Shown here one piece after another: positions 2,417-55,768 of a stretch of 64,000 bases of DNA. Under the pieces are notes generated by a model that did not search any database, was not told the DNA's origin, and saw only the letters and a program-made list of their open reading frames with translations. This stretch comes from a virus: positions 15,751 to 79,750 of the IMG/VR virus record IMGVR_UViG_3300032236_001645. One strand, written 5' to 3'. A program made the position numbers and the translations under genes. Each line of letters begins with the position of its first letter. The first letter of the stretch is position 1.

Positions 2417-5400
2417 TTAACAATGTGCTATTAGTGTAAATAATCCATTTGAATCAAATGTACCATAGTTTGTTTTATCTGACCACCTTGCAGCGGCAGG
2501 ACCTGTGAACGGTGTCACACCATCAGATTGATAATAGTTTTTACCGTTTATTAATGTATTCACTCCAAGATATGCATAAACTACACTGTATGCAGTTGGG
2601 TTATTACTACATGCAATTGTACTTGTAGAACCACCTTGAATTGTGAAGCTGGTTAAAGGACATACTATTTGATATTCTATTGTTTGTGCTGTACAACCAT
2701 TACTATCAATTACATATAACCAATAGTAACCACAACTTAATCCTGTTACTGTTACATAGTTATTACTAGCAAGGTTACTAGTTACACCTGTTGTGAATAC
2801 TTGATTATCAGTTGGGTAATCATTATATGGTGTTGCATTATCCTTATACAACTTCATAGTTCTTGTACCTGAACCACCAGAACATGTAATTCTTAATGAA
2901 CCATTTCCACCCGCACCTGTTTCGTTAACAACTTGATCTATGTAACCATATAATGCGTCAGGTGATGTAATTGTTTGTGAGTATGATTGAACACAACCTG
3001 AACTATCTTTAATATAGATTGTGTAATTACCCATAGATAAACTACTAAATGTCTTAGGTAAAGCATAGTAAGTTGAATTATCTGTAGATGCACTATATCC
3101 TGAACCTGAACCACCTGAACCACCACTTACTGCGATACTACCATTATTACTTGTAGCACAAGTTATATTTGTAACTGATATTGTTGCATTTGGTGCTGTT
3201 ACCGCAAATGTAGTTGAAGAAGATGTTGCAGTACAACCATTACTATCTTTAACTGTAACACTATAAGTACCATTACCTAAACCTGTAAATGAATTACTTG
3301 ATTGGTATGTTCCACCATTTAATGAATATGTATAACCACCAGTTCCGCCACCCGCAGTTGCTGTAACACTACCATTAGTACCGTTATAACATGTAGGTGC
3401 CGTTCCTGAAATTGAACTTGTAACCTGTGTTCTTGCAAGGTTTCCAACTGAAACTGACACAACAGTTCCATTTCTACCACTATTTCTTACATAACCTGTA
3501 TATGTTCCACCTGCTAATGAACTGAACGTTGCACTTGACTGCCAGTTTACATTATCTTTAGAATATTCATATGCCGCACCATTACCACCACTTGCACTTA
3601 ATGTAAATGCTGCAGTTGTATCACCATAACATGTTTGTATTGTTGAACTTGCTACTGACAATGATAATGCAGGTAACGAAGGTGTTTGTGTCTGTGTTGC
3701 CGTTTGTGACGGTGTAATATTTGGTGTTGGTGTTTGAGTCGTTGTTTGAGTTGGGGTAGGTGTTTGTGTAACACAAGGAGTACATAAACCATTTAATGTT
3801 GCGGTAGTTCCTGATACCGATTTTGTTGCACTTCTATAACTTCCGTTTAGAGCAATATAAAAATTACCAATTGGTACTGTTACAATATTTGTTGAAGATA
3901 TTGACGTCGCATCACATAAACTAATGCCACCCGTTAAAGTTACTTTACCTAATTGTATACCATTATAACAAGCACTGTACGCATCTGCACCCCAAGTATA
4001 TGGAGGTTGTGTTGGTGTCGGCGTTTGTGTCATAGTTGGTGTAACACTTGGTGTTTGAGTTTGTGTTGGCGTTTGAGTTTGCGTACCCGTTTGAGTTTGA
4101 GTTTGAGTTGGTGTAATAGTATTTGTTGGTGTTACTGTTTGTGTTTGAGTTGGTGTAATAGTATTTGTTGGTGTTACTGATGGTGTTGATGTAACAGTTT
4201 GTGTGATAGTTGTGGTTGGTGTAATAGTATTTGTTGGCGTAACAGTATTTGTTGGTGTTACTGTTTGAGTCGGAGTTTGAGTTTGAGTTGCAGTCACCGA
4301 TGGAGTAATTGTATTTGTTGGTGTAACTGTTTGTGTTGGCGTTGGACTTGGAGCTAACACGCTTACATTGATTCCAAAGAAACACTGGATTGTTGGGGTT
4401 GGTGTTTGTGTTGTGGTAGGAGTTACTGTAGTAGTTGGTGTAATTGTATTCGTAGGTGTAACTGTTGGTGTAACAGTCTTTGTCGGTGTTTGCGTTTGTG
4501 TTGATGTTGGCGTTTGGGTAGTTGTTGGTGTGATAGTGTTTGTAGCGGTAATTGTTTGTGTAATAGTTGTGGTAGGTGTAATAGTATTTGTTGGTGTAAC
4601 AGTATTTGTTGGTGTTTGTGTATTTGTAGGTGTAATAGTATTTGTTGGTGTAACTGATGGAGTTATAGTGTTTGTTGCTGTAACTGTTTGTGTTGGTGTT
4701 GGGCTTGGTGCCAATACAGATACGTTGATTCCGAAGAAACATTGGATCGTAGGAGTAGGTGTTTGCGTTGTTGTCGGTGTAACCGTTGTTGTAGGTGTAA
4801 CTGTTTGAGTTGGTGTTACAGTAGGTGTACTTGTTCTTGTTTGTGTATTTGTTGGTGTAACTGTTGTCGTTGGTGTAACAGTTTGTGTAATAGTTGTTGT
4901 AGGTGTAATAGTATTTGTTGGCGTTATTGTATTTGTAGGCGTTTGAGTAGTTGTTGGTGTAATAGTCTGTGTCGCTGTTACTGATGGAGTAATTGTATTT
5001 GTTGGAGTAATAGTTTGTGTTGGAGTTGGTGATGGGGCAAGTACCGAAACGTTTATACCAAAGAAACATTGAATTGTTGGAGTTGGTGTTTGCGTCGTTG
5101 TTGGTGTAACGGTAGTCGTAGGTGTTATAGTATTTGTTGGTGTAACAGTTGGTGTAATTGTGGTAGTAGGTGTGATTGTATTTGTCGGAGTAACGCTTGG
5201 TGTTGACGTATTTGTTGCAGTAATTGTTTGTGTTGGAGTAATAGTAGTTGTTGGTGTAATAGTTTGTGTTGCTGTTACTGATGGTGTAATAGTATTTGTT
5301 GGGGTTATAGTTTGAGTTGGTGTCGGACTTGGAGCAAGTACTGAAACATTAATACCAAAGAAGCACTGTATAGTCGGAGTCGGCGTTTGTGTCGTAGTAG

Positions 5401-8400
5401 GTGTAACAGTTGTAGTTGGTGTAATAGTATTTGTTGGGGTGACAGTTGGCGTATGAGTCGTAGTTGGTGTAACCGTTGTTGTAGGTGTAACTGTTTGTGT
5501 TGGTGTCACAGTTGTAGTTGGCGTAACAGTACTTGTTGGTGTAATTGTTTGTGATGCTGTTACTGATGGTGTAATAGTATTTGTTGGCGTAACCGTATTT
5601 GTTGGCGTAGGTGATGGTGCGAGAACAGAAACATTTATTCCAAAGAAACACTGAATTGTTGGTGTTGGCGTTTGTGTTGCAGTTGAAGTAACCGTGGTTG
5701 TCGGTGTGATAGTTGTAGTTGGAGTAACAGTCTGTGTATGTGTTGTAGTAGGTGTAACCGTAGTTGTTGGTGTTACAGTTTGGGTGGAAGTTACTGTTGT
5801 TGTTGGGGTAACTGTTGTAGTTGGAGTAATAGTGTTCGTTGGAGTTACAGTTGGGGTAACTGTGGTTGTCGGTGTAATAGTTGTAGTTGGAGTAGGGCTT
5901 GGTGCCAACACACTCACATTGATTCCGAAGAAACATTGGATAGTAGGTGTTGGTGTTTGCGTGGTAGTTGGTGTAACAGTCGTTGTTGGTGTAATTGTAT
6001 ATGTTGGGGTTACAGTAGGTGTAATAGTATTTGTTGGTGTAACCGTATTTGTTGGTGTAGGTGAAGGTGCCAATACGCTTACATCTATACCAAAGAAACA
6101 CTGTATGGTTGGTGTAGGTGTTTGGGTAGTCGTTGGTGTAACAGTTGTAGTTGGTGTAATTGTTGTTGTCGGTGTAACTGTTTGTGTTTGAGTTGTAGTT
6201 GGCGTAACTGTTTGTGTTTGAGTAACAGTTGGTGTTTGAGTTGGAGTTTCTGTGTTTGATGGTGTAACAGTTTGGGTAGGTGTTGGTGAAGGTGCAAGAA
6301 CAGATACATTGATTCCGAAGAAACATTGGATTGTAGGTGTAGGTGTTTGCGTCGTTGTTGGAGTAACGGTAGTGGTTGGTGTAATAGTAGTAGTAGGAGT
6401 AACTGTAGTAGTTGGTGTAACTGTTGGGGTTACTGTTGGTGTTAAAGTTGTAGTTGGAGTTTGTGTAGGTGTTTCCGTATTTGATGGTGTTATCGTTTGC
6501 GTTGGTGTAGGGCTTGGAGCTAGTACACTTACATCTATACCAAAGTAACACTGAATAGTCGGAGTTGGCGTTTGTGTGGTAGTTGGCGTAACGGTAGTAG
6601 TTGGTGTAATAGTAGTGGTTGGAGTAACTGTTGGAGTTTGTGTAACAGTCGGCGTTTGAGTTGGTGTCTCCGTATTTGAAGGTGTAATAGTTTGTGTTGG
6701 AGTAGGTGATGGGGCAAGTACTGATACGTCAATACCAAAGAAACATTGAATTGTTGGTGTTGGCGTTTGAGTCGTGGTAGTTGTTGGTGTTATTGTATTC
6801 GTAGGCGTCACAGTTGGGGTAACCGGTGGTGTGGATGTTACTGTTTGAGTCGGAGTTGGTGACGGAGCAAGAACCGATACATTTATACCAAAGAAACATT
6901 GAATTGTTGGTGTTGGTGTCTGTGTTGCAGTTGTAGTTGGTGTAATAGTTGTAGTAGGTGTTACACTTGGAGTAACCGGTGGAGTGGATGTTGTGGTTGT
7001 TGTAGGTGTTGGTGATGGTGCAAGTACTGATACGTCAATACCAAAATAACATTGAACTGTTGGTGTTGGCGTTTGAGTTGAAGTTACTGTTGGTGTAATC
7101 GTAGTAGTAGGTGTTACCGTAGGTGTTGGTGGCATAGTACTAGTGACAGTTGGCGTTGGAGTTGAAGTAGGTGCCAATACACTTACATTGATTCCGAAGA
7201 AGCATTGAATTGTAGGTGTAGGTGTTTGAGTAGCGGTAGGAGATGGTGTTGGTGGCATAGTACCGGTAACAGTAGGTGTTGGGGTAGTTGTTGGTGCCAA
7301 AACACTTACATCAATACCAAAGAAACATTGAATTGTTGGAGTTGGTGTCTGTGTAGTGGTTGATGTAACACTAGGGGTTACTGTTGTTGTTGATGTAACA
7401 CTCGGAGTAACTGTTTGTGTATTTGTATTTGTTGGTGTATTTGTATTTGTTGGTGTAACAGTCGTTGTTGGTGTAACTGTGGGTGTTTCAGTCGGATTTG
7501 GAGTACCTGTATTAGTTGATGTAACACTTGGAGTAATTGTATTGGTAGGTGTTAAAGTTGGTGTTGATGTATTTGTTACCGTAGCAGTTTGAGTTGTAGT
7601 TGGCGTTTGTGTAACAGTTGGAGTGATAGTTGTAGTTGCTGTAACTGTTTGTGTCAGTGTTTGAGTTTGCGTATTAGTAGGTGTAACTGTTGTTGTTGAT
7701 GTAACAGTTGGTGTTTGTGTAAGAGTTTGGGTAGGTGTTACTGTAGCAGTAACTGTATTTGTTGGTGTTACAGTTGTGGTAGAAGTTGGTGTTTGTGTTG
7801 GTGGTAATGTTTGTGTTGGTGTGGTAGTTGGTGTTTGAGATATAACAAAAACATCATCAATATCATCATACCATATAATTTCATAAGAATTACCAGATGC
7901 TGCAGGTGTTGGTAAATTAAATGTAAATGACTCATTTAAATAATCAACTACATTTCCACCATAAGGTATTAATCTTGTGGTGTTGTTATATTTTGTATCA
8001 ATAAGTGAACCATTTTTCCATAATTCAACTCTAGTTGTATGTACATAAACAGAATATAAATTATCATTATGATACATTATTCTTTGTGCACTTATTGTTG
8101 TTTGTCCAACACACACATCACTATTAACATAGTCTGATGTAAAATACCATGGTGCTGGTGGTTCATTACTATCATTTGTAACTAAATCTGAAAGTAATGC
8201 CGATGGACACGTAGAGTCCAAATATGATTTAACAGTTGGTACATAAACATTAATACCACCAGATTTTACATTATTAAGTTGTTCATATGTAATCTTAACT
8301 TCAAGTGAAGTTTTAGTTGTTGTAGGTGTAACTGTAGCGGTAACAGTTGGTGTTGGTGTATATGATGCGGTATTTGATGGTGTTAAAGGTATATACGTTG

Positions 8401-16713: not shown

Positions 16714-16767
16714 TCTTATAATAAATAGAAAAAATGAAATTTTCTACTATTATAAACTAAAAAACTT

Positions 16768-38538: not shown

Positions 38539-38562
38539 TTTATTTTATTATAAATAGTTTTT

Positions 38563-40467
38563 TTATTTTTTTGGTGGACTTGTATATTCACCCAAATTTC
38601 TTTCCGCCCATTTATCAAACACATGTGTATTTCTTATTATATCTCTATTTAATGGTTCCATTACGTTATTTGATGTAAGTTGTATAGTATGGTTAACATT
38701 CACTGTTTGAGCCGTTTGATTTGTTGTTTGTGGTTGTTCAACAGGTTTCAAAGCCTCCATCATTTTTTCAAAATTATCATTAATGAATTTATTATTTGTT
38801 AAATCAAAAGGAGTTTTTTCTTTTGTATAATTTAACGCATCATCTTTAAATTTTGTTAAAAATTTGGAAACATCACCATTACTTTCTTTAAAAGTATTAA
38901 GAAAATAATCTTTTGTACTTTGTGCTGTTTGCTTAACTTCTTTACCTAGAGAACCTTCTTGTAATCTATTACCGGCCTGTAGATACATTGCGGTTAAAAT
39001 ATCTTTAATTTGTGTAACTTCATTGTATTGTTGTCTAGCAATGTCTTCAGGTTTTTCATCCGCTAATTCTTGTTCAATTTTTGCCAATTGTTCTAATTGA
39101 CTTCCGTTTAAACTATCTAACGCAACAAATCCTTGTTTTATACCACCTCCTAATTTAGCGGCAACATCTTTTGGTAAATCAATCCCAATTTTACCATCTT
39201 TCATTGTTGCAATATTTGAAACAAATTCTTTTTGTTCAGGACTAATATTTGGAAACATGTCAATTTTAGACATCGCTTCAAGTTTGTTTGCTCCTCTAAC
39301 CGCCATATTTGTCAAGTCACCCACACTTACTCCTAACGCATCCGCCATTGCTCTTGCCTTTCTTAAATTAACACCAGTAATTTCAAATCTACCTTGTTCT
39401 GCATTATATGTTGCCAAACTTCTCGCAGCATCAACTAAACTTGTTTGTAATGCCTCCACATTATTAGTCGCATCGTACATCGCTTTTAATGGATTAGCAA
39501 AATCACCTACAGCACCGCCAATTACTTGTAAATTAGCCGCCATGTCTATCGCTTTATCGGGATCAATTAATCTTTCCGCAACATCAAATGCTGATTGCAT
39601 GTTAATATTTAAAGATTGAGATTCTTGTACCATTTTACCTAAACCATCAATACCATTTTTGAATCCATAAAGATTCATTTTATCTAAATTTTTCATTAAG
39701 GTTTCACTAGCTTGTCTAGCATTTAAACCTAACGCATATGATCTATTTCCTATCCTTTCAATTGCAGCTGCGGCATCTCCCAAACCAATACCGACTCTTC
39801 TAAAATTTTCAGCATTATCTAATAAATCTCTTGATGTTTTTGTATATGCCTGTGACGCTTTAAATGCTGAATCTATGGTGTCTTTACTATATAACGCCAT
39901 TCTACCTGAATCAGTCATTAAAGTTTTAGTAGCGTCTATATAATCATTTACTGATACACCTAAGGCAACGGCTTCTGGTAAAGCTTCTCTTAATTCTTTA
40001 GCCATAGCACTACCTAAATCTCCTATCATACCTGCTTGTCCTTTAACATTCAAATTAAATTGATTGTTTAAAGACGCCATGTCCGCAAGAACTTCTGTGG
40101 CTTTTGTAACTCCAAAACTAACAAAATTCGTTAATAAAGTAATTGGATTAAGACTTAAAGTATCTGCTGCGTCTCCCATGAATTTTAATAAATCCGCCCT
40201 TATTTGATCGTTTTGTCTTGTATCAATAACAGATTTACTTAAACCACTAATTGCATTACTAAAAATTCCTTTTGTACCCGTAGCGGCAGAAGATACCGCA
40301 CCTGAAGCCATACCTGCAACTTTACTTATTGCGTTGTTTATGGTATTCAAAGCATTTGTTGCCTCAGTTGAACCCAAACCAAAACCCTTGGTTTTATCTT
40401 GGAAAAATCCTAATAATTTGTCACCCTGAGCACCTGTAAATCCACCACTACCAAAAATTCCTTGCAT
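38563..40467 (-). CDS. Tape measure protein
   Basis: Ala/Gly/Leu-rich helical protein downstream of tube and chaperone genes (ARAMADALGVSVGDL). Confidence 0.75.
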   Translation of the reverse strand: MQGIFGSGGFTGAQGDKLLGFFQDKTKGFGLGSTEATNALNTINNAISKVAGMASGAVSSAATGTKGIFSNAISGLSKSVIDTRQNDQIRADLLKFMGDAADTLSLNPITLLTNFVSFGVTKATEVLADMASLNNQFNLNVKGQAGMIGDLGSAMAKELREALPEAVALGVSVNDYIDATKTLMTDSGRMALYSKDTIDSAFKASQAYTKTSRDLLDNAENFRRVGIGLGDAAAAIERIGNRSYALGLNARQASETLMKNLDKMNLYGFKNGIDGLGKMVQESQSLNINMQSAFDVAERLIDPDKAIDMAANLQVIGGAVGDFANPLKAMYDATNNVEALQTSLVDAARSLATYNAEQGRFEITGVNLRKARAMADALGVSVGDLTNMAVRGANKLEAMSKIDMFPNISPEQKEFVSNIATMKDGKIGIDLPKDVAAKLGGGIKQGFVALDSLNGSQLEQLAKIEQELADEKPEDIARQQYNEVTQIKDILTAMYLQAGNRLQEGSLGKEVKQTAQSTKDYFLNTFKESNGDVSKFLTKFKDDALNYTKEKTPFDLTNNKFINDNFEKMMEALKPVEQPQTTNQTAQTVNVNHTIQLTSNNVMEPLNRDIIRNTHVFDKWAERNLGEYTSPPKK

Positions 40468-40498
40468 TGTGTTATATTACCTTTATGTAATAAATAGT

Positions 40499-40645
40499 TT
40501 ATTCCATATTTTCTGTGAGAATGTTAATGATGTTTCTCCTTTCGTGAATAGGTAATATCAATACGTCTTTATAAGTAAAACCTTTACTTAAAAGAAATAA
40601 AATTTCAAATATTTGGGTTCTTTTATATTCCGTAGAAAGGACGAA
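40499..40645 (-). CDS. gp51-like small chaperone ORF with no usable ATG start, in the +1 frame of the upstream gene; not in ORF track
   Basis: FVLSTEYKRTQIFEILFLLSKGFTYKDVLILPIHERRNIINILTENME*; fills the gap up to the tape measure gene's upstream motif. Confidence 0.7.
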   Translation of the reverse strand, partial: FVLSTEYKRTQIFEILFLLSKGFTYKDVLILPIHERRNIINILTENME

Positions 40646-41369
40646 AAAATTCAACCCCAAAGTCCACGTAAACTGGGACTACTTCTCCTGATGGGGCTGT
40701 TACTTCAACTAATAAATCTAAACCTGGTTTATTTTCACTAACAAATTTTTTGAATTCTTGTGAATCTTTAATTGGGAGATTTTGAATAAATTGATATATT
40801 GCCATCATTTCCCTATTACCGTCAATTTGTTTAATCATCATTTCAAGTCTTTTAGTCTGAATTGGTACAACGGCACTTGTAGATGATTCTCTAATTTTTT
40901 CTAATTCTTTTTCTTGTAAATTGTTTAAAAATTTAAATTTAATTGGTTTTTTACTAATTGGTAAATAAAATTCATATTCACCATTAGCATCGGCTTTCAA
41001 ATTAAAATCTTTAACTTTTAAAACTGATAAATCTAAATTAGTTTCAAATTCTTTATTTGTTGCAGGATCAGTCAATTTAACAGTATAATCTGAACCAAAC
41101 GCGGTATTTCTTAAAAATATTAAAATCGCTTGTCTATCTTCAATTACTAACTCATCTAAATTGAAATCTTTATCTAATATTTTTCTTTTTAATAATTCAT
41201 CTAATACACTATCACTTTGTATTAAATTTTGTGAGGTAAGAATATTCTCATCGGATGCCGTTAAATAAGCAATTCTCAATGATTTTCTATTATTACTATA
41301 ATGTACTCCTTTACTTGGTAGTTCAACTACGTCGTAGGCAATTGTTGGATCTATTCTATTATCTTCCAT
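40623..41369 (-). CDS. Baseplate hub / tail assembly chaperone, T4 gp26-like
   Basis: VELPSKG..Y, YLTASDENIL, DRQAILIFLRNTAFG.DY, ends FGVEFFRP; lies between tube and tape measure. Confidence 0.8.
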   Translation of the reverse strand: MEDNRIDPTIAYDVVELPSKGVHYSNNRKSLRIAYLTASDENILTSQNLIQSDSVLDELLKRKILDKDFNLDELVIEDRQAILIFLRNTAFGSDYTVKLTDPATNKEFETNLDLSVLKVKDFNLKADANGEYEFYLPISKKPIKFKFLNNLQEKELEKIRESSTSAVVPIQTKRLEMMIKQIDGNREMMAIYQFIQNLPIKDSQEFKKFVSENKPGLDLLVEVTAPSGEVVPVYVDFGVEFFRPFYGI

Positions 41370-41469: not shown

Positions 41470-41958
41470 TTAGTATACTAAGATACATCTATCAGGTCTC
41501 AAAGAACAAGTGATAGTTGCTAACGCATCGTTGTTGTAGTCTAATTCTTGGAAGTCAAGGTTAGTTAAGAAAGTACCTTGTAAAATCCATTTTTCAACAA
41601 CCACACCTGTCGGATCTAACATTTCTAATTCAATATCTTTTTTGTAACCAGCAGCATATCCCATACGTCCTGTAACTGATTCTGCATGTAAACGGAACCA
41701 TTCCATTAAAGCTTGAGAAGCTGAAGGACCGATTGGATCTTTGAATGTTACTCTAATCTCTTCCCATTCAAATCTACCAGCAACATATGTTGAAGTGTTT
41801 AAAAACGGAATAGGCACTGAATTGATTTTAGCAGCGGGTCTTTTAGTTGAAGTCACATACCATTCATTTATACCCAAAGTTGATGGGAATCTTAAGATGA
41901 ATCGGTTGACTCTTTTCGGTTCGTAAGGAACCGGCATTTTCATTAGTAAATCTGCCAT
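41470..41958 (-). CDS. Tail tube protein, T4 gp19-like
   Basis: EPKRVNRFIL, YVAGRFEWEEI.VTF.DPI, YKKDIEL.MLDPTG.VVEKW.L.G. Confidence 0.92.
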   Translation of the reverse strand: MADLLMKMPVPYEPKRVNRFILRFPSTLGINEWYVTSTKRPAAKINSVPIPFLNTSTYVAGRFEWEEIRVTFKDPIGPSASQALMEWFRLHAESVTGRMGYAAGYKKDIELEMLDPTGVVVEKWILQGTFLTNLDFQELDYNNDALATITCSLRPDRCILVY

Positions 41959-42287: not shown

Positions 42288-44717
42288 TTAGATATTTTCA
42301 AATGAAGCTCCTGTTGGAGTAATTACGAACTCTAAGTCAATGAATTCCAAAGAACGAGTTGGTTTGATGTATATCTTACCTCTTAATGTGTTTGCGTCAA
42401 TATCCTCAGGATCACTTGAAACACTTACACGGAAGTCATATAAACCTCTTTCTTTCTTAATTGCTTCTAAAATAGGGTTTACCAATCTTAAGAATTCTTG
42501 TCTTACCTGATCGTCATTTTGTTCAAACAACAATCTAACAGCAACCGCAGAAATCAATTTTCTCGCTCTTAACAATAATCTTCTTACGTTGATTCTGTCC
42601 AAAGCGGATTCTCTAACTTGTAATGTTTTATTACCCCAAATGATAGTACCTGTATCAGAGAATGTAGCGATTGGGTTAATTCTATTTTTGTATAAAGTAT
42701 CTCTTTCGTCTAAAGTTAATTTCTTTTGAGCTTTGATAGCGTTTACCAATCCTCTTGAATAACCCGCAACTGCGAACCAAGGATAAGATACGTTGTCAGT
42801 CAAAGCAATATTTCTACAAACCTCACCTGTTGGTGGGATATATAATTGAGTTGCATTATCGGTATCTCTAATTTGAATCCAAGGCCAATATGTTGCTGAG
42901 TAGTTAGAATCAATACCTTGATCTTCTAAGTCACCAACAATTGATGTCATATCTGTTTCATTTGGAGCACCAATAATATATATTGAATCCGCTCTATCAT
43001 TTTCTATAATGTCAATTGCTTGAGTTGTTAAAGAACTATGATCGTAGAAATTAATACCTGGTGTGGCAAATACGTTGATATCTACCGCTTCAGGGTTTGA
43101 ATATGTGTTAATACCATCTAAGTAAGCGTAATAATCTGAGTTACCTTCACTTGTATTAAATAAACCACCATTGTTAGTATTACCTGAAATATATGTAGTT
43201 TTTCCAAATATATAACTATCACCATAAGTTCTTACAGTTCTATAGATGTCCCAACCATCAAAACCACCACATGCTGCAAATGTAAACTTACGATAGTTAA
43301 TATCTAACATTTTATTTGTACTTGAATCACCACTTTGTCCTTCTAAATCATAATTTGTTGTTTGATAAGTTGTACCGGTAATTGTTGATGCATTTGTCGA
43401 TAAATGGAAACCGTAAGTTGTTCCTAAAGAACCCGCACCTTTATATTTAAACAAATCACTATCGTATAAGAAATCTGATTGAGTAGAAAGTCCTAAAGTA
43501 TTTTTTCTATAAGAATCTCCGTTACTTGTAGTTGTACCATAAATTACATCTCCTGAATTAAAGAATGAAGTTTTATATAAAACACTACCTAATGTAGTTG
43601 AACCTGATAATGAAGAATTTGTAAATCCTTTAAAACCAGCGGGAAAAGCATCTGAAGGTGCATTTGAATCCATATTCAACATTATATATTTTGAATTTAA
43701 ACTATATTCACCATCTGAAGTACCGATTTTTCTTGCAACATAACCAGCAACATCTGGATTCATAGAACATCTTGAAAATTTCTCTAAAACTGACATATTA
43801 TCATCAGTATCATTAAAATCTCTAACTAAAACATCAAATTCACCTGTGTTTATATTAATATTTTGAATTGTAATTTTTACTTGTTCATTTGATGCATCTC
43901 CATCGGATATTGTAATTATTTGGAATAAATCAGAAACCTTACCACCTCTTACTTCTGAAACAACCATTGGTGAAGCTGCGGTGTCCCATCCGTTTGCGAA
44001 GTTATTACCTTCAGCATTATATACCTCAGTAAGACTTAAACCAGATATAAGTTGTTGATTATAAAGATTTTTTACCAAATTTGGATACACTTCATGTACA
44101 TATAATGGAATATCTGTACCGTCTTTATCATAAGGACTTGTACCTAAAACTTTTGTAATGTATTTTGGTGATGTTGAATCTAAACTACATGTAAATGTTT
44201 TTGCACCATGAGTTAATCCTGTTACGTGAATATCAAATTCAGATAGAGGATTTGTAGTTAAAGTATTACCACTAAGAATAAATGCCGAGTTAGATGTAAC
44301 TTCAAAAACTATAGTTTCACCTGAATAGTGTCCTCTAGATCTCAAAGCCGCCACAACTACGTTGTTATATTCATCACTTCCGATAGTTTTGATACCGAAT
44401 GTTTTACCTGCTTTATATCCTGTTTTACCCAAAATTCTTGTTACAAATAATTGATTAGATTCTTGAAGATATGATTTTGCAACATAAGGTAATTCATATT
44501 TTGGATTATTATTAGCATCTTTTTCAGGAGATGTTCCACCAAAATATGTTTTAAAATCTGTAAAATTTGAAATTAATATTGGTTCAAAAGCAGGACCTTT
44601 TAATGTCTCACCTACTAAACCTAATGTTGTAACACCTACACTTTGTGCTACAAATGTTAAATCTACCTCAGAAGTGTAAACACCTGGAGATACGAATACT
44701 CTGTTTGAATTTGCCAT
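42288..44717 (-). CDS. Tail sheath protein, T4 gp18-like
   Basis: FVSPGVYTSE.D, GETLKGP, PWFAVAGYSRG, LYKNRINPI, WGNKTLQ...LDRINVRRL, PTRSLEFI. Confidence 0.96.
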   Translation of the reverse strand: MANSNRVFVSPGVYTSEVDLTFVAQSVGVTTLGLVGETLKGPAFEPILISNFTDFKTYFGGTSPEKDANNNPKYELPYVAKSYLQESNQLFVTRILGKTGYKAGKTFGIKTIGSDEYNNVVVAALRSRGHYSGETIVFEVTSNSAFILSGNTLTTNPLSEFDIHVTGLTHGAKTFTCSLDSTSPKYITKVLGTSPYDKDGTDIPLYVHEVYPNLVKNLYNQQLISGLSLTEVYNAEGNNFANGWDTAASPMVVSEVRGGKVSDLFQIITISDGDASNEQVKITIQNININTGEFDVLVRDFNDTDDNMSVLEKFSRCSMNPDVAGYVARKIGTSDGEYSLNSKYIMLNMDSNAPSDAFPAGFKGFTNSSLSGSTTLGSVLYKTSFFNSGDVIYGTTTSNGDSYRKNTLGLSTQSDFLYDSDLFKYKGAGSLGTTYGFHLSTNASTITGTTYQTTNYDLEGQSGDSSTNKMLDINYRKFTFAACGGFDGWDIYRTVRTYGDSYIFGKTTYISGNTNNGGLFNTSEGNSDYYAYLDGINTYSNPEAVDINVFATPGINFYDHSSLTTQAIDIIENDRADSIYIIGAPNETDMTSIVGDLEDQGIDSNYSATYWPWIQIRDTDNATQLYIPPTGEVCRNIALTDNVSYPWFAVAGYSRGLVNAIKAQKKLTLDERDTLYKNRINPIATFSDTGTIIWGNKTLQVRESALDRINVRRLLLRARKLISAVAVRLLFEQNDDQVRQEFLRLVNPILEAIKKERGLYDFRVSVSSDPEDIDANTLRGKIYIKPTRSLEFIDLEFVITPTGASFENI

Positions 44718-46737: not shown

Positions 46738-46792
46738 ATCCTAATAAATAGTTTAATCTTACATTCTATTTAGTTATATTATATATAATACG

Positions 46793-55729: not shown

Positions 55730-55768
55730 GTCTATAAATAGTTTGTATTAATCTTTCTATTTTAATTT

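Follow-up and report, generated by a model that had tools for sequence, protein, structure and literature searches.

The question raised by the 64,000-nucleotide (nt) stretch of IMG/VR virus record IMGVR_UViG_3300032236_001645 analysed here (the window) is whether its gp26-like gene, a relative of T4 genes 26 and 51, is read as one protein or as two. The zero frame of this gene ends in GAA TTT TTT CGT CCT TTC TAC GGA ATA TAA, and a preliminary description of the sequence had proposed that a programmed +1 shift at UUU_CGN allows the gene to make both a short and a long tail chaperone. Comparative tests on relatives supported that proposal, and it is very probable from the conservation described below that a programmed +1 ribosomal frameshift at UUU_CGN gives a chaperone pair resembling the G and GT proteins of phage lambda. 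The features concerned, all on the minus strand, are as follows.

40623-41369, minus strand: zero-frame gp26-like gene, predicted short chaperone form of 248 amino acids (aa), with matches to PF12322 and phrog_150.
40655-40658, minus strand: GGGG element, 8 nt 5' of the P-site codon.
40640-40649, minus strand: putative shift site UUU_UUU_CGU_C, with the P-site UUU at 40644-40646, the A-site CGU at 40641-40643 and +1 re-pairing on UUC at 40643-40645.
40623-40643, minus strand: dual-coding overlap, reading RPFYGI-stop in the zero frame and VLSTEYK in the +1 frame.
40499-40645, minus strand: +1-frame extension of 48 codons plus a stop, a putative 'T'-like or gp51 C-terminal-like domain, recognised by codon-phase diversity and homology.

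The run of T at 40644-40649 is followed by CGT at 40641-40643, and the zero-frame stop is at 40623-40625. Starting 53 nt ahead of that stop, the +1 frame stays open as far as a TAA at 40499-40501, and after the UUC codon it reads VLSTEYKRTQIFEILFLLSKGFTYKDVLILPIHERRNIINILTENME, ending in NME. Its sole ATG lies two codons before its own stop, and two TTG codons are located just upstream of the site, at 40660 and 40654. The gene end, the open +1 frame, the lack of a usable ATG and the stop just before the upstream motif of the next gene were all borne out as first described, and the predicted lengths of 289 aa and 248 aa for a UUU to UUC slip were confirmed by the modelled trans-frame product (P0005), which is 289 aa long with the junction GVEFF/VLSTEYK. 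The predicted tryptic junction peptide of the long form from the window contains GVEFFVLSTEYK. By our own estimate, the chance of an open +1 frame of ~59 codons at one place in DNA of 30% GC is ~0.007. As the open reading frame (ORF) is by itself only mildly unlikely, it is comparison with relatives that gives it significance.

Two scans of IMG/VR, in which more than 587 stretches encoded relatives, provided 112 loci with 45-95% protein identity. Removal of duplicates left 84 distinct junctions, two GenBank phages included, and 82 genes were used for a codon alignment and for a tree built without the site block. The zero-frame site was TTT TTT CGT at 49 of the 84 junctions, and ended in CGC at 25, CGA at four and CGG at two; variant sites were TTC TTT CGC in locus L052 and TTT TTT CTC in locus L063. 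The slip codon, Phe242, was TTT in all 82 genes with no change on the tree. Arg243 was CGN in 81 of 81 and never AGA or AGG, its 16 codon changes on the tree all falling within CGN, whereas four other Arg columns of the alignment were 85-97% AGA/AGG. Phe245 was TTC in 82 of 82 with no change on the tree, whereas other Phe columns changed 8-13 times. Third-position diversity was 0.00-0.03 at GGG, TTT, TTT and TTC versus 0.37-0.68 at neighbouring codons. Conservation of TTT CGN at the nucleotide level was the check suggested in the preliminary description. The nearby CCT TTC, raised there as another possible slip site, was set aside, as this place varies among relatives (GCT, GTC, TTT). Within the window, CGN accounts for 18% of Arg codons, and TTT_CGN occurs in frame twice in ~19,800 codons.

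The extension was found in the +1 frame at all 84 junctions, with a length of 46-82 codons and a stop just before the next gene, which encodes the tape measure protein. It is homologous across all relatives, and its codon-phase diversity in the +1 frame is 0.41/0.27/0.54. In the overlap, zero-frame third positions vary (CGN, CCY, TAY, GGN), and the zero-frame tail RPFYG(I/L) is kept as protein with synonymous variation. Conservation of this tail as protein indicates that both frames are read. In the +1 frame, the C of the Phe245 TTC is the second position of an invariant Ser codon, TCT, located upstream of the position (ACG, or ATG in some relatives) where an internal start could lie. The fixation of TTC in 82 of 82 genes is thus accounted for by the service of its C to this Ser codon, and a Ser codon that is invariant ahead of any possible internal start indicates that the +1 frame is under protein selection there.

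Further upstream, Gly238 is GGG in 72 of 82 genes, with zero third-position diversity in the 70 closest. GGG makes up 2.4% of the Gly codons in the window, so the GGGG element is kept against codon bias. Coding in the +1 frame does not explain it, as that frame is closed at GGGG in at least 13 loci, and the zero frame does not explain it either. The element may be a stimulator of the frameshift.

One locus differs in structure. L022 (IMGVR_UViG_3300008113_001720, ~3700-5570) lacks the extension: its gp26-like frame continues for another six codons, and its +1 frame leads straight into the tape measure protein; this is a deletion variant or an assembly chimera.

Homologues from more distant lineages were compared for the sequence at the site and for the frame of the extension.

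Bacillus phage vB_BceM-HSE3: GAG TTC TTT CGT CCC, +1.
Streptococcus phage vB_SagM-GXN1: GAA TTC TTT CGT CCC, +1.
Flavobacterium phage immuto: TTT CTT TGG, +1.
Microcystis phage Mel-JY01: TTT TTT TGG, +1.
Bacillus phage SP-15: TTT TTT CAC, +1.
Listeria phage LIS04: TTT TTT AGT, +1.
IMG/VR subfamily L120-L125, L129 and L130: ATT TTT CTC (TTT TTT TTC in two), +1.
IMG/VR subfamily L126-L128: GTT TTC CTT, +1.
Pseudomonas phage PA5oct: T_TTT_TTC, -1.
Ralstonia phage RsoM2USA: T9 run, -1.

The HSE3 and GXN1 proteins share only 26-30% identity with the window protein, and their +1 ORF is open. The constant +1 offset that had been expected was found at all 84 junctions of the clade but does not extend to PA5oct and RsoM2USA, where the offset is -1. 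As each of the -1 lineages has a matching slippery run, they support recoding rather than refute it. Judged from these sequences, the slippery sequence appears to fit the required offset in every lineage, L126-L128 being without a clean slip codon. An offset-matched slippery sequence across lineages is what programmed recoding predicts, unlike chance overlap. The site in L126-L128 (GTT TTC CTT AAT) is accompanied by a conserved +1 extension and offers no clean re-pairing at the homologous place. PA5oct (L133, 1950-3010) and RsoM2USA (L134, 1444-2480) are cultured giant phages, and the -1 extension is annotated in neither record.

The modelled 289-aa product was also used in a phmmer search of 1.84 billion cluster representatives, in which 2016 matched at E <=0.001 and 150 were listed. 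For nearly all of the 150 listed matches the alignment reaches query residue 242-243, at the slip codon, and the protein stops 3-6 residues further on, indicating that the split architecture is the rule. Two matches were colinear with the modelled product across the junction. P0116 (304 aa, six contigs) aligned to residues 10-289 of P0005 with 32% identity (E 4e-48), and the DNA encoding it in locus L119 forms a single uninterrupted frame that lacks a slippery run. P0156 (331 aa) aligned likewise (E 6e-36) and has NFFGYPDDYR across the junction, which mirrors the predicted EFF/VLSTEYK. These fused forms were found by the exhaustive search; among close relatives, none came up when the extension was compared with longer proteins in a word-indexed search. 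P0116 was absent from IMG/VR, and its only metagenome locus is 1.9 kb long and without an adjoining tape measure gene. Many of the listed family members (among P0009-P0155) have lengths of 400-585 aa, their gp26-like domain being preceded by 100-290 additional N-terminal residues.

The 248-aa product matched PF12322 (T4_baseplate) with 40.2 bits against a cut-off of 24.5, and phrog_150 ('baseplate hub') with E 8e-11. T4 gp26 and gp51 are both in PF12322 and phrog_150, and these family assignments indicate that they are paralogues belonging to the same family as the window gene. The window short form covers profile positions 17-233 of the 282 in phrog_150, T4 gp26 (208 aa) covers 14-235 and T4 gp51 (249 aa) covers 13-280. 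The C-terminal half of gp51 corresponds to phrog_634 ('baseplate hub assembly catalyst'), which was matched by seven of 29 homologous extensions (best E 4e-5); nine of the 29 also weakly matched Pfam DUF6760. No phrog_634 match was obtained for the window's own extension in the profile search, with the fused product the phrog_150 match reached no further than position 253 and scored no higher, and hhalign placed the extension on gp51 residues 218-246 without significance. The profile matches support the view that the extension corresponds to the C-terminus of gp51, such that the long product would resemble gp51 as a whole and the short one gp26, in keeping with the 'gp51-like' label given to this domain in the preliminary description.

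Our reading of these matches is that gp26 and gp51 would be a two-gene version of the short and long pair made here by recoding, such that one gene of the window's phage would do what T4 does with genes 26 and 51. The window short form ends at an EFF motif, as T4 gp26 does (KEFFELL-stop), and the long form appears to carry a gp51-type C-terminal segment. In T4, however, the two forms come from separate, divergently transcribed paralogous genes that are not beside gene 29 (tape measure), there is no frameshift, and gene 26 also makes a smaller product, 26', from an internal start. Gene 26' (L035, 7803-8090) is thus a second product by which T4 makes more than one protein from genes of this family by another route. 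T4 gp26 and gp51 also keep two CxxC pairs, a putative zinc ribbon, which have been lost in the clade of the window, where DPAT and APSG stand in their place. The CxxC pairs are also kept in P0116, P0156 and the Bacillus phage HSE3 and Streptococcus phage GXN1 homologues.

In the mechanism proposed for the window, most ribosomes would read the zero frame to the stop at 40623-40625 and release the 248-aa short form ending in VEFFRPFYGI. A fraction would pause when CGU, a rare Arg codon, is in the A site and tRNA-Phe is paired to the second UUU (40644-40646) in the P site, and the rarity of CGN would give time for a slip. The tRNA-Phe would then slip from UUU to UUC and translation would continue in the +1 frame to give the 289-aa long form (VEFF-VLSTEYK, ending in NME), so that the extension would be expressed only as a fusion. 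The invariant element of the site is UUU followed by C, and tRNA-Phe (anticodon GAA) pairs with UUC at least as well as with UUU. In bacteria, UUU_Ynn is prone to +1 shifting (PMC5009743). A slip at the stop codon was considered and rejected, as L114 stops earlier (TTC TTC TGA) and ATA_TAA offers no re-pairing. The short form would be equivalent to T4 gp26 and lambda gpG, and the long form to T4 gp51 and lambda gpGT. On this analogy, both forms would use their common N-terminal part to hold the tape measure protein, and the long form would use its additional C-terminal domain to recruit subunits of the tube or hub; neither would stay in the virion. We infer that the shift is ribosomal and is +1 rather than -2, and the same applies to its efficiency and to the roles of the two products.

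Several observations weigh against this interpretation. No conserved RNA structure was found, either in a single-sequence fold (z -0.77) or by RNAalifold on 29 sequences (0 pairs), and no RNA run covering the stretch was found among the sequencing runs searched. In prfB the stimulatory Shine-Dalgarno-like sequence is closer to its site than GGGG is here, so that GGGG is at most a possible stimulator, and slow decoding of CGU in the host is presumed. The T6 run would also permit a -2 shift or transcriptional slippage in the phage of the window. In about one third of close relatives, TAT replaces TAC, a change that is synonymous in the zero frame and Thr/Met in the +1 frame, and which creates an ATG four codons after the site; independent initiation is possible in these relatives. 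Direct comparison with T4 gp51 and gp26 by BLAST, by hmmsearch with a hidden Markov model of 82 fused products and by hhalign was non-significant, and the T4 link therefore rests on the PHROG and Pfam profiles. Likeness of the predicted fold to known tail assembly chaperones is weak and suggestive only. The AF2 model of the short form (pLDDT 89, pTM 0.82) gave nothing below E 0.6 when compared with the PDB using Foldseek. An exhaustive aligner placed Bacillus subtilis YqbN (Z 5.1) and the HK97 tail assembly chaperone (Z 4.4) in its top three for residues 128-215, values below the stated noise level of the tool. YqbN is a prophage tail assembly chaperone of the XkdN type. No match of the 248-aa product to any Pfam TAC family was found in the Pfam search.

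Four other explanations of the long +1 frame were considered. Transcriptional slippage, with one U lost or two inserted by RNA polymerase at the T6 run so that some mRNAs carry the long form in a single frame, is quite improbable. Homopolymer slippage is a known recoding route (PMC5009743). The run of six T is found in the window and most relatives, and runs of T7 to T9 in some lineages (Mel-JY01, RsoM2USA); however, L052, HSE3 and GXN1 keep the system with TTC TTT CGN, in which the run is of only three T. Six T is also short for efficient polymerase slippage. Furthermore, polymerase slippage needs neither the fixed C nor CGN, whereas P-site re-pairing with a slow A-site codon needs both.

A second possibility, that the small ORF is a separate gene translated alone from an upstream TTG, from the ACG/ATG position or from another non-canonical start, with no fusion made, is quite improbable. 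The two upstream TTG codons of the window, the ATG present in some relatives, the separate small ORFs called by GenBank annotators in immuto, Mel-JY01, HSE3 and SP-15, and the internal start of T4 gene 26 are all in its favour. However, at no fewer than 13 junctions the +1 frame contains no ATG, GTG or TTG either ahead of the site or in the first 10 codons beyond it, and L077 has no canonical start anywhere in its +1 ORF. In many loci a TAG two codons before the site (G TAG AGT TTT TTC) shuts the +1 frame, indicating that the two TTG codons of the window are not a general start. The caveat in the preliminary description that these codons could initiate the small ORF therefore fails, at least 13 relatives either having the +1 frame closed by TAG or lacking a canonical start before the conserved peptide. 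Independent initiation would also leave the fixed TTT and CGN unexplained; the Ser codon that holds Phe245 at TTC lies upstream of the ACG/ATG position, and long forms encoded by a single ORF (P0116, P0156) exist.

A ribosomal -2 shift on the U-run, which would lead to the same frame with a long form one Phe longer, is very improbable. Re-pairing two bases back on UUU_UUU would be perfect in the window, and in Listeria phage LIS04 (TTT TTT AGT) the +1 re-pairing, on UUA, is imperfect. However, relatives with TTC TTT CGN could shift by -2 only through re-pairing on CUU, only a +1 shift accounts for the conserved C that follows UUU, and the junction of the single-ORF forms reads FF, not FFF. Finally, given the error-prone nature of homopolymer runs and the existence of single-ORF homologues, one gene could seem split through an indel introduced in sequencing or assembly. 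This is effectively refuted by the zero-frame stop and +1 offset that 110 loci from many samples share, by the lack of any indel at the site in contigs from three metagenome runs of two studies, and by the synonymous variation under which the RPFYG(I/L) tail is kept as protein.

The programmed +1 shift is also in keeping with the genetic context of the gp26-like gene. The IMG/VR virus record is of 79,750 bases and is rated 26% complete, and is probably a fragment of an uncultured giant phage. The GC content of the window is ~30%, and no tRNA genes were found in it. Around the site all genes are on the minus strand, and the neighbouring features are as follows.

42288-44717, minus strand: tail sheath gene (phrog_23 tail sheath, E 5e-68).
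41470-41958, minus strand: upstream tail tube gene, 162 aa (phrog_4542 tail tube, E 6e-24).
40490-40497, minus strand: CTATTTAT motif between the extension stop and the tape measure start, with five copies in the window.
38563-40467, minus strand: downstream tape-measure-like gene, 634 aa (phrog_14441 'tail length tape measure protein', E 0.003).

The order sheath, tube, gp26-like gene and tape measure is the same in annotated phages, and in Flavobacterium phage immuto, Bacillus phage HSE3 and Listeria phage LIS04 the counterpart of the 634-aa gene carries a tape measure annotation. Its product is the presumed client of the gp26-like chaperone. The five CTATTTAT copies (40490-40497, 38550-38557, 16721-16728, 46744-46751 and 55734-55741) are all on the minus strand, which is the coding strand at each, and 5-25 nt before an ATG. 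Their number is not above chance (five versus seven expected), but their placement is striking, and the motif may be a late promoter or may mark gene starts. The +1 stop is also followed by AACTATTTAT in nearly every related locus.

Frameshifting that produces lambda gpG and gpGT, and its conservation in the tail assembly chaperones of long-tailed phages, are attributed to Levin 1993 and to Xu, Hendrix and Duda 2004 in a later review (PMC5009743). The window gene resembles lambda G/GT in that it lies between the tube (major tail) and tape measure genes, and in that the slippery sequence is conserved at the nucleotide level in the overlap. As in lambda, a frameshift near the 3' end would add a C-terminal domain without a start of its own, giving a short and a long product with a common N-terminus. 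The window differs in that the shift is +1 at UUU_CGN rather than -1 at a heptamer of the form X_XXY_YYZ, and in that the protein belongs to PF12322 (T4 gp26/gp51) and not to a Pfam Phage_TAC family. The -1 versions (U_UUU_UUC, T9) occur only in the distant relatives PA5oct and RsoM2USA.

The preliminary description had also compared the site to that of influenza A PA-X, UCC_UUU_CGU (PMC5009743). The likeness holds for UUU_CGU_C, in which a P-site UUU is followed by a rare A-site CGU and then C, such that tRNA-Phe would slip from UUU to UUC, and both lack a strong stimulatory structure. It does not hold for the E-site codon, which in the phage family is UUU (UUC in L052, HSE3 and GXN1) and not UCC. 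The phage site would also act on a bacterial ribosome with any CGN in the A site (CUC, CAC or UGG in other subfamilies), and there is no evolutionary relation. Bacterial UUU_Y sites and the +1 site of prfB are similar in that P-site slippage is onto an overlapping cognate or near-cognate codon with a slow A site, and prfB also has a G-rich element upstream (PMC5009743; PMC10885494). However, the phage site has no stop codon in the A site, and GGGG is 8 nt upstream in the window versus 3 nt in prfB, a prfB-like Shine-Dalgarno effect being only a possibility.

In searches of open-access text, no description of a frameshift in gp26/gp51-type genes was found. Tail-chaperone frameshifting is a known kind of event; here it would be in the +1 direction, at a PA-X-like site and in the gp26/gp51 family. 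T4 gp26 and gp51 are listed as hub assembly chaperones (Leiman et al. 2010, PMC3004832, Table 2), and G-T frameshifting is described in the review as conserved in long-tailed phages 'except T4' (PMC5009743).

We consider it rather likely that the T4 gp26/gp51 family is the contractile-tail counterpart of lambda G/GT, that its ancestral and commonest form of expression is a programmed frameshift at the FF motif (+1 at UUU_Y in most, -1 at U_UUU_UUC in some), that T4 replaced recoding by gene duplication, and that UUU_CGN is in wide use on bacterial ribosomes, possibly helped by GGGG. If so, the sole reported exception to the tail-chaperone frameshift rule would be removed. T4 genes 26 and 51, for a long time known only as hub assembly chaperones that act by an unknown mechanism, would gain a concrete role. 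A whole class of phage genomes, in which small downstream ORFs have been called 'hypothetical' or missed, would need re-annotation. The family would also provide a large natural set of bacterial +1 sites (UUU_CGN, UUU_CUC, UUU_UGG, UUU_CAC) beside -1 sites at the homologous position, from which the determinants of shift direction and efficiency could be studied.

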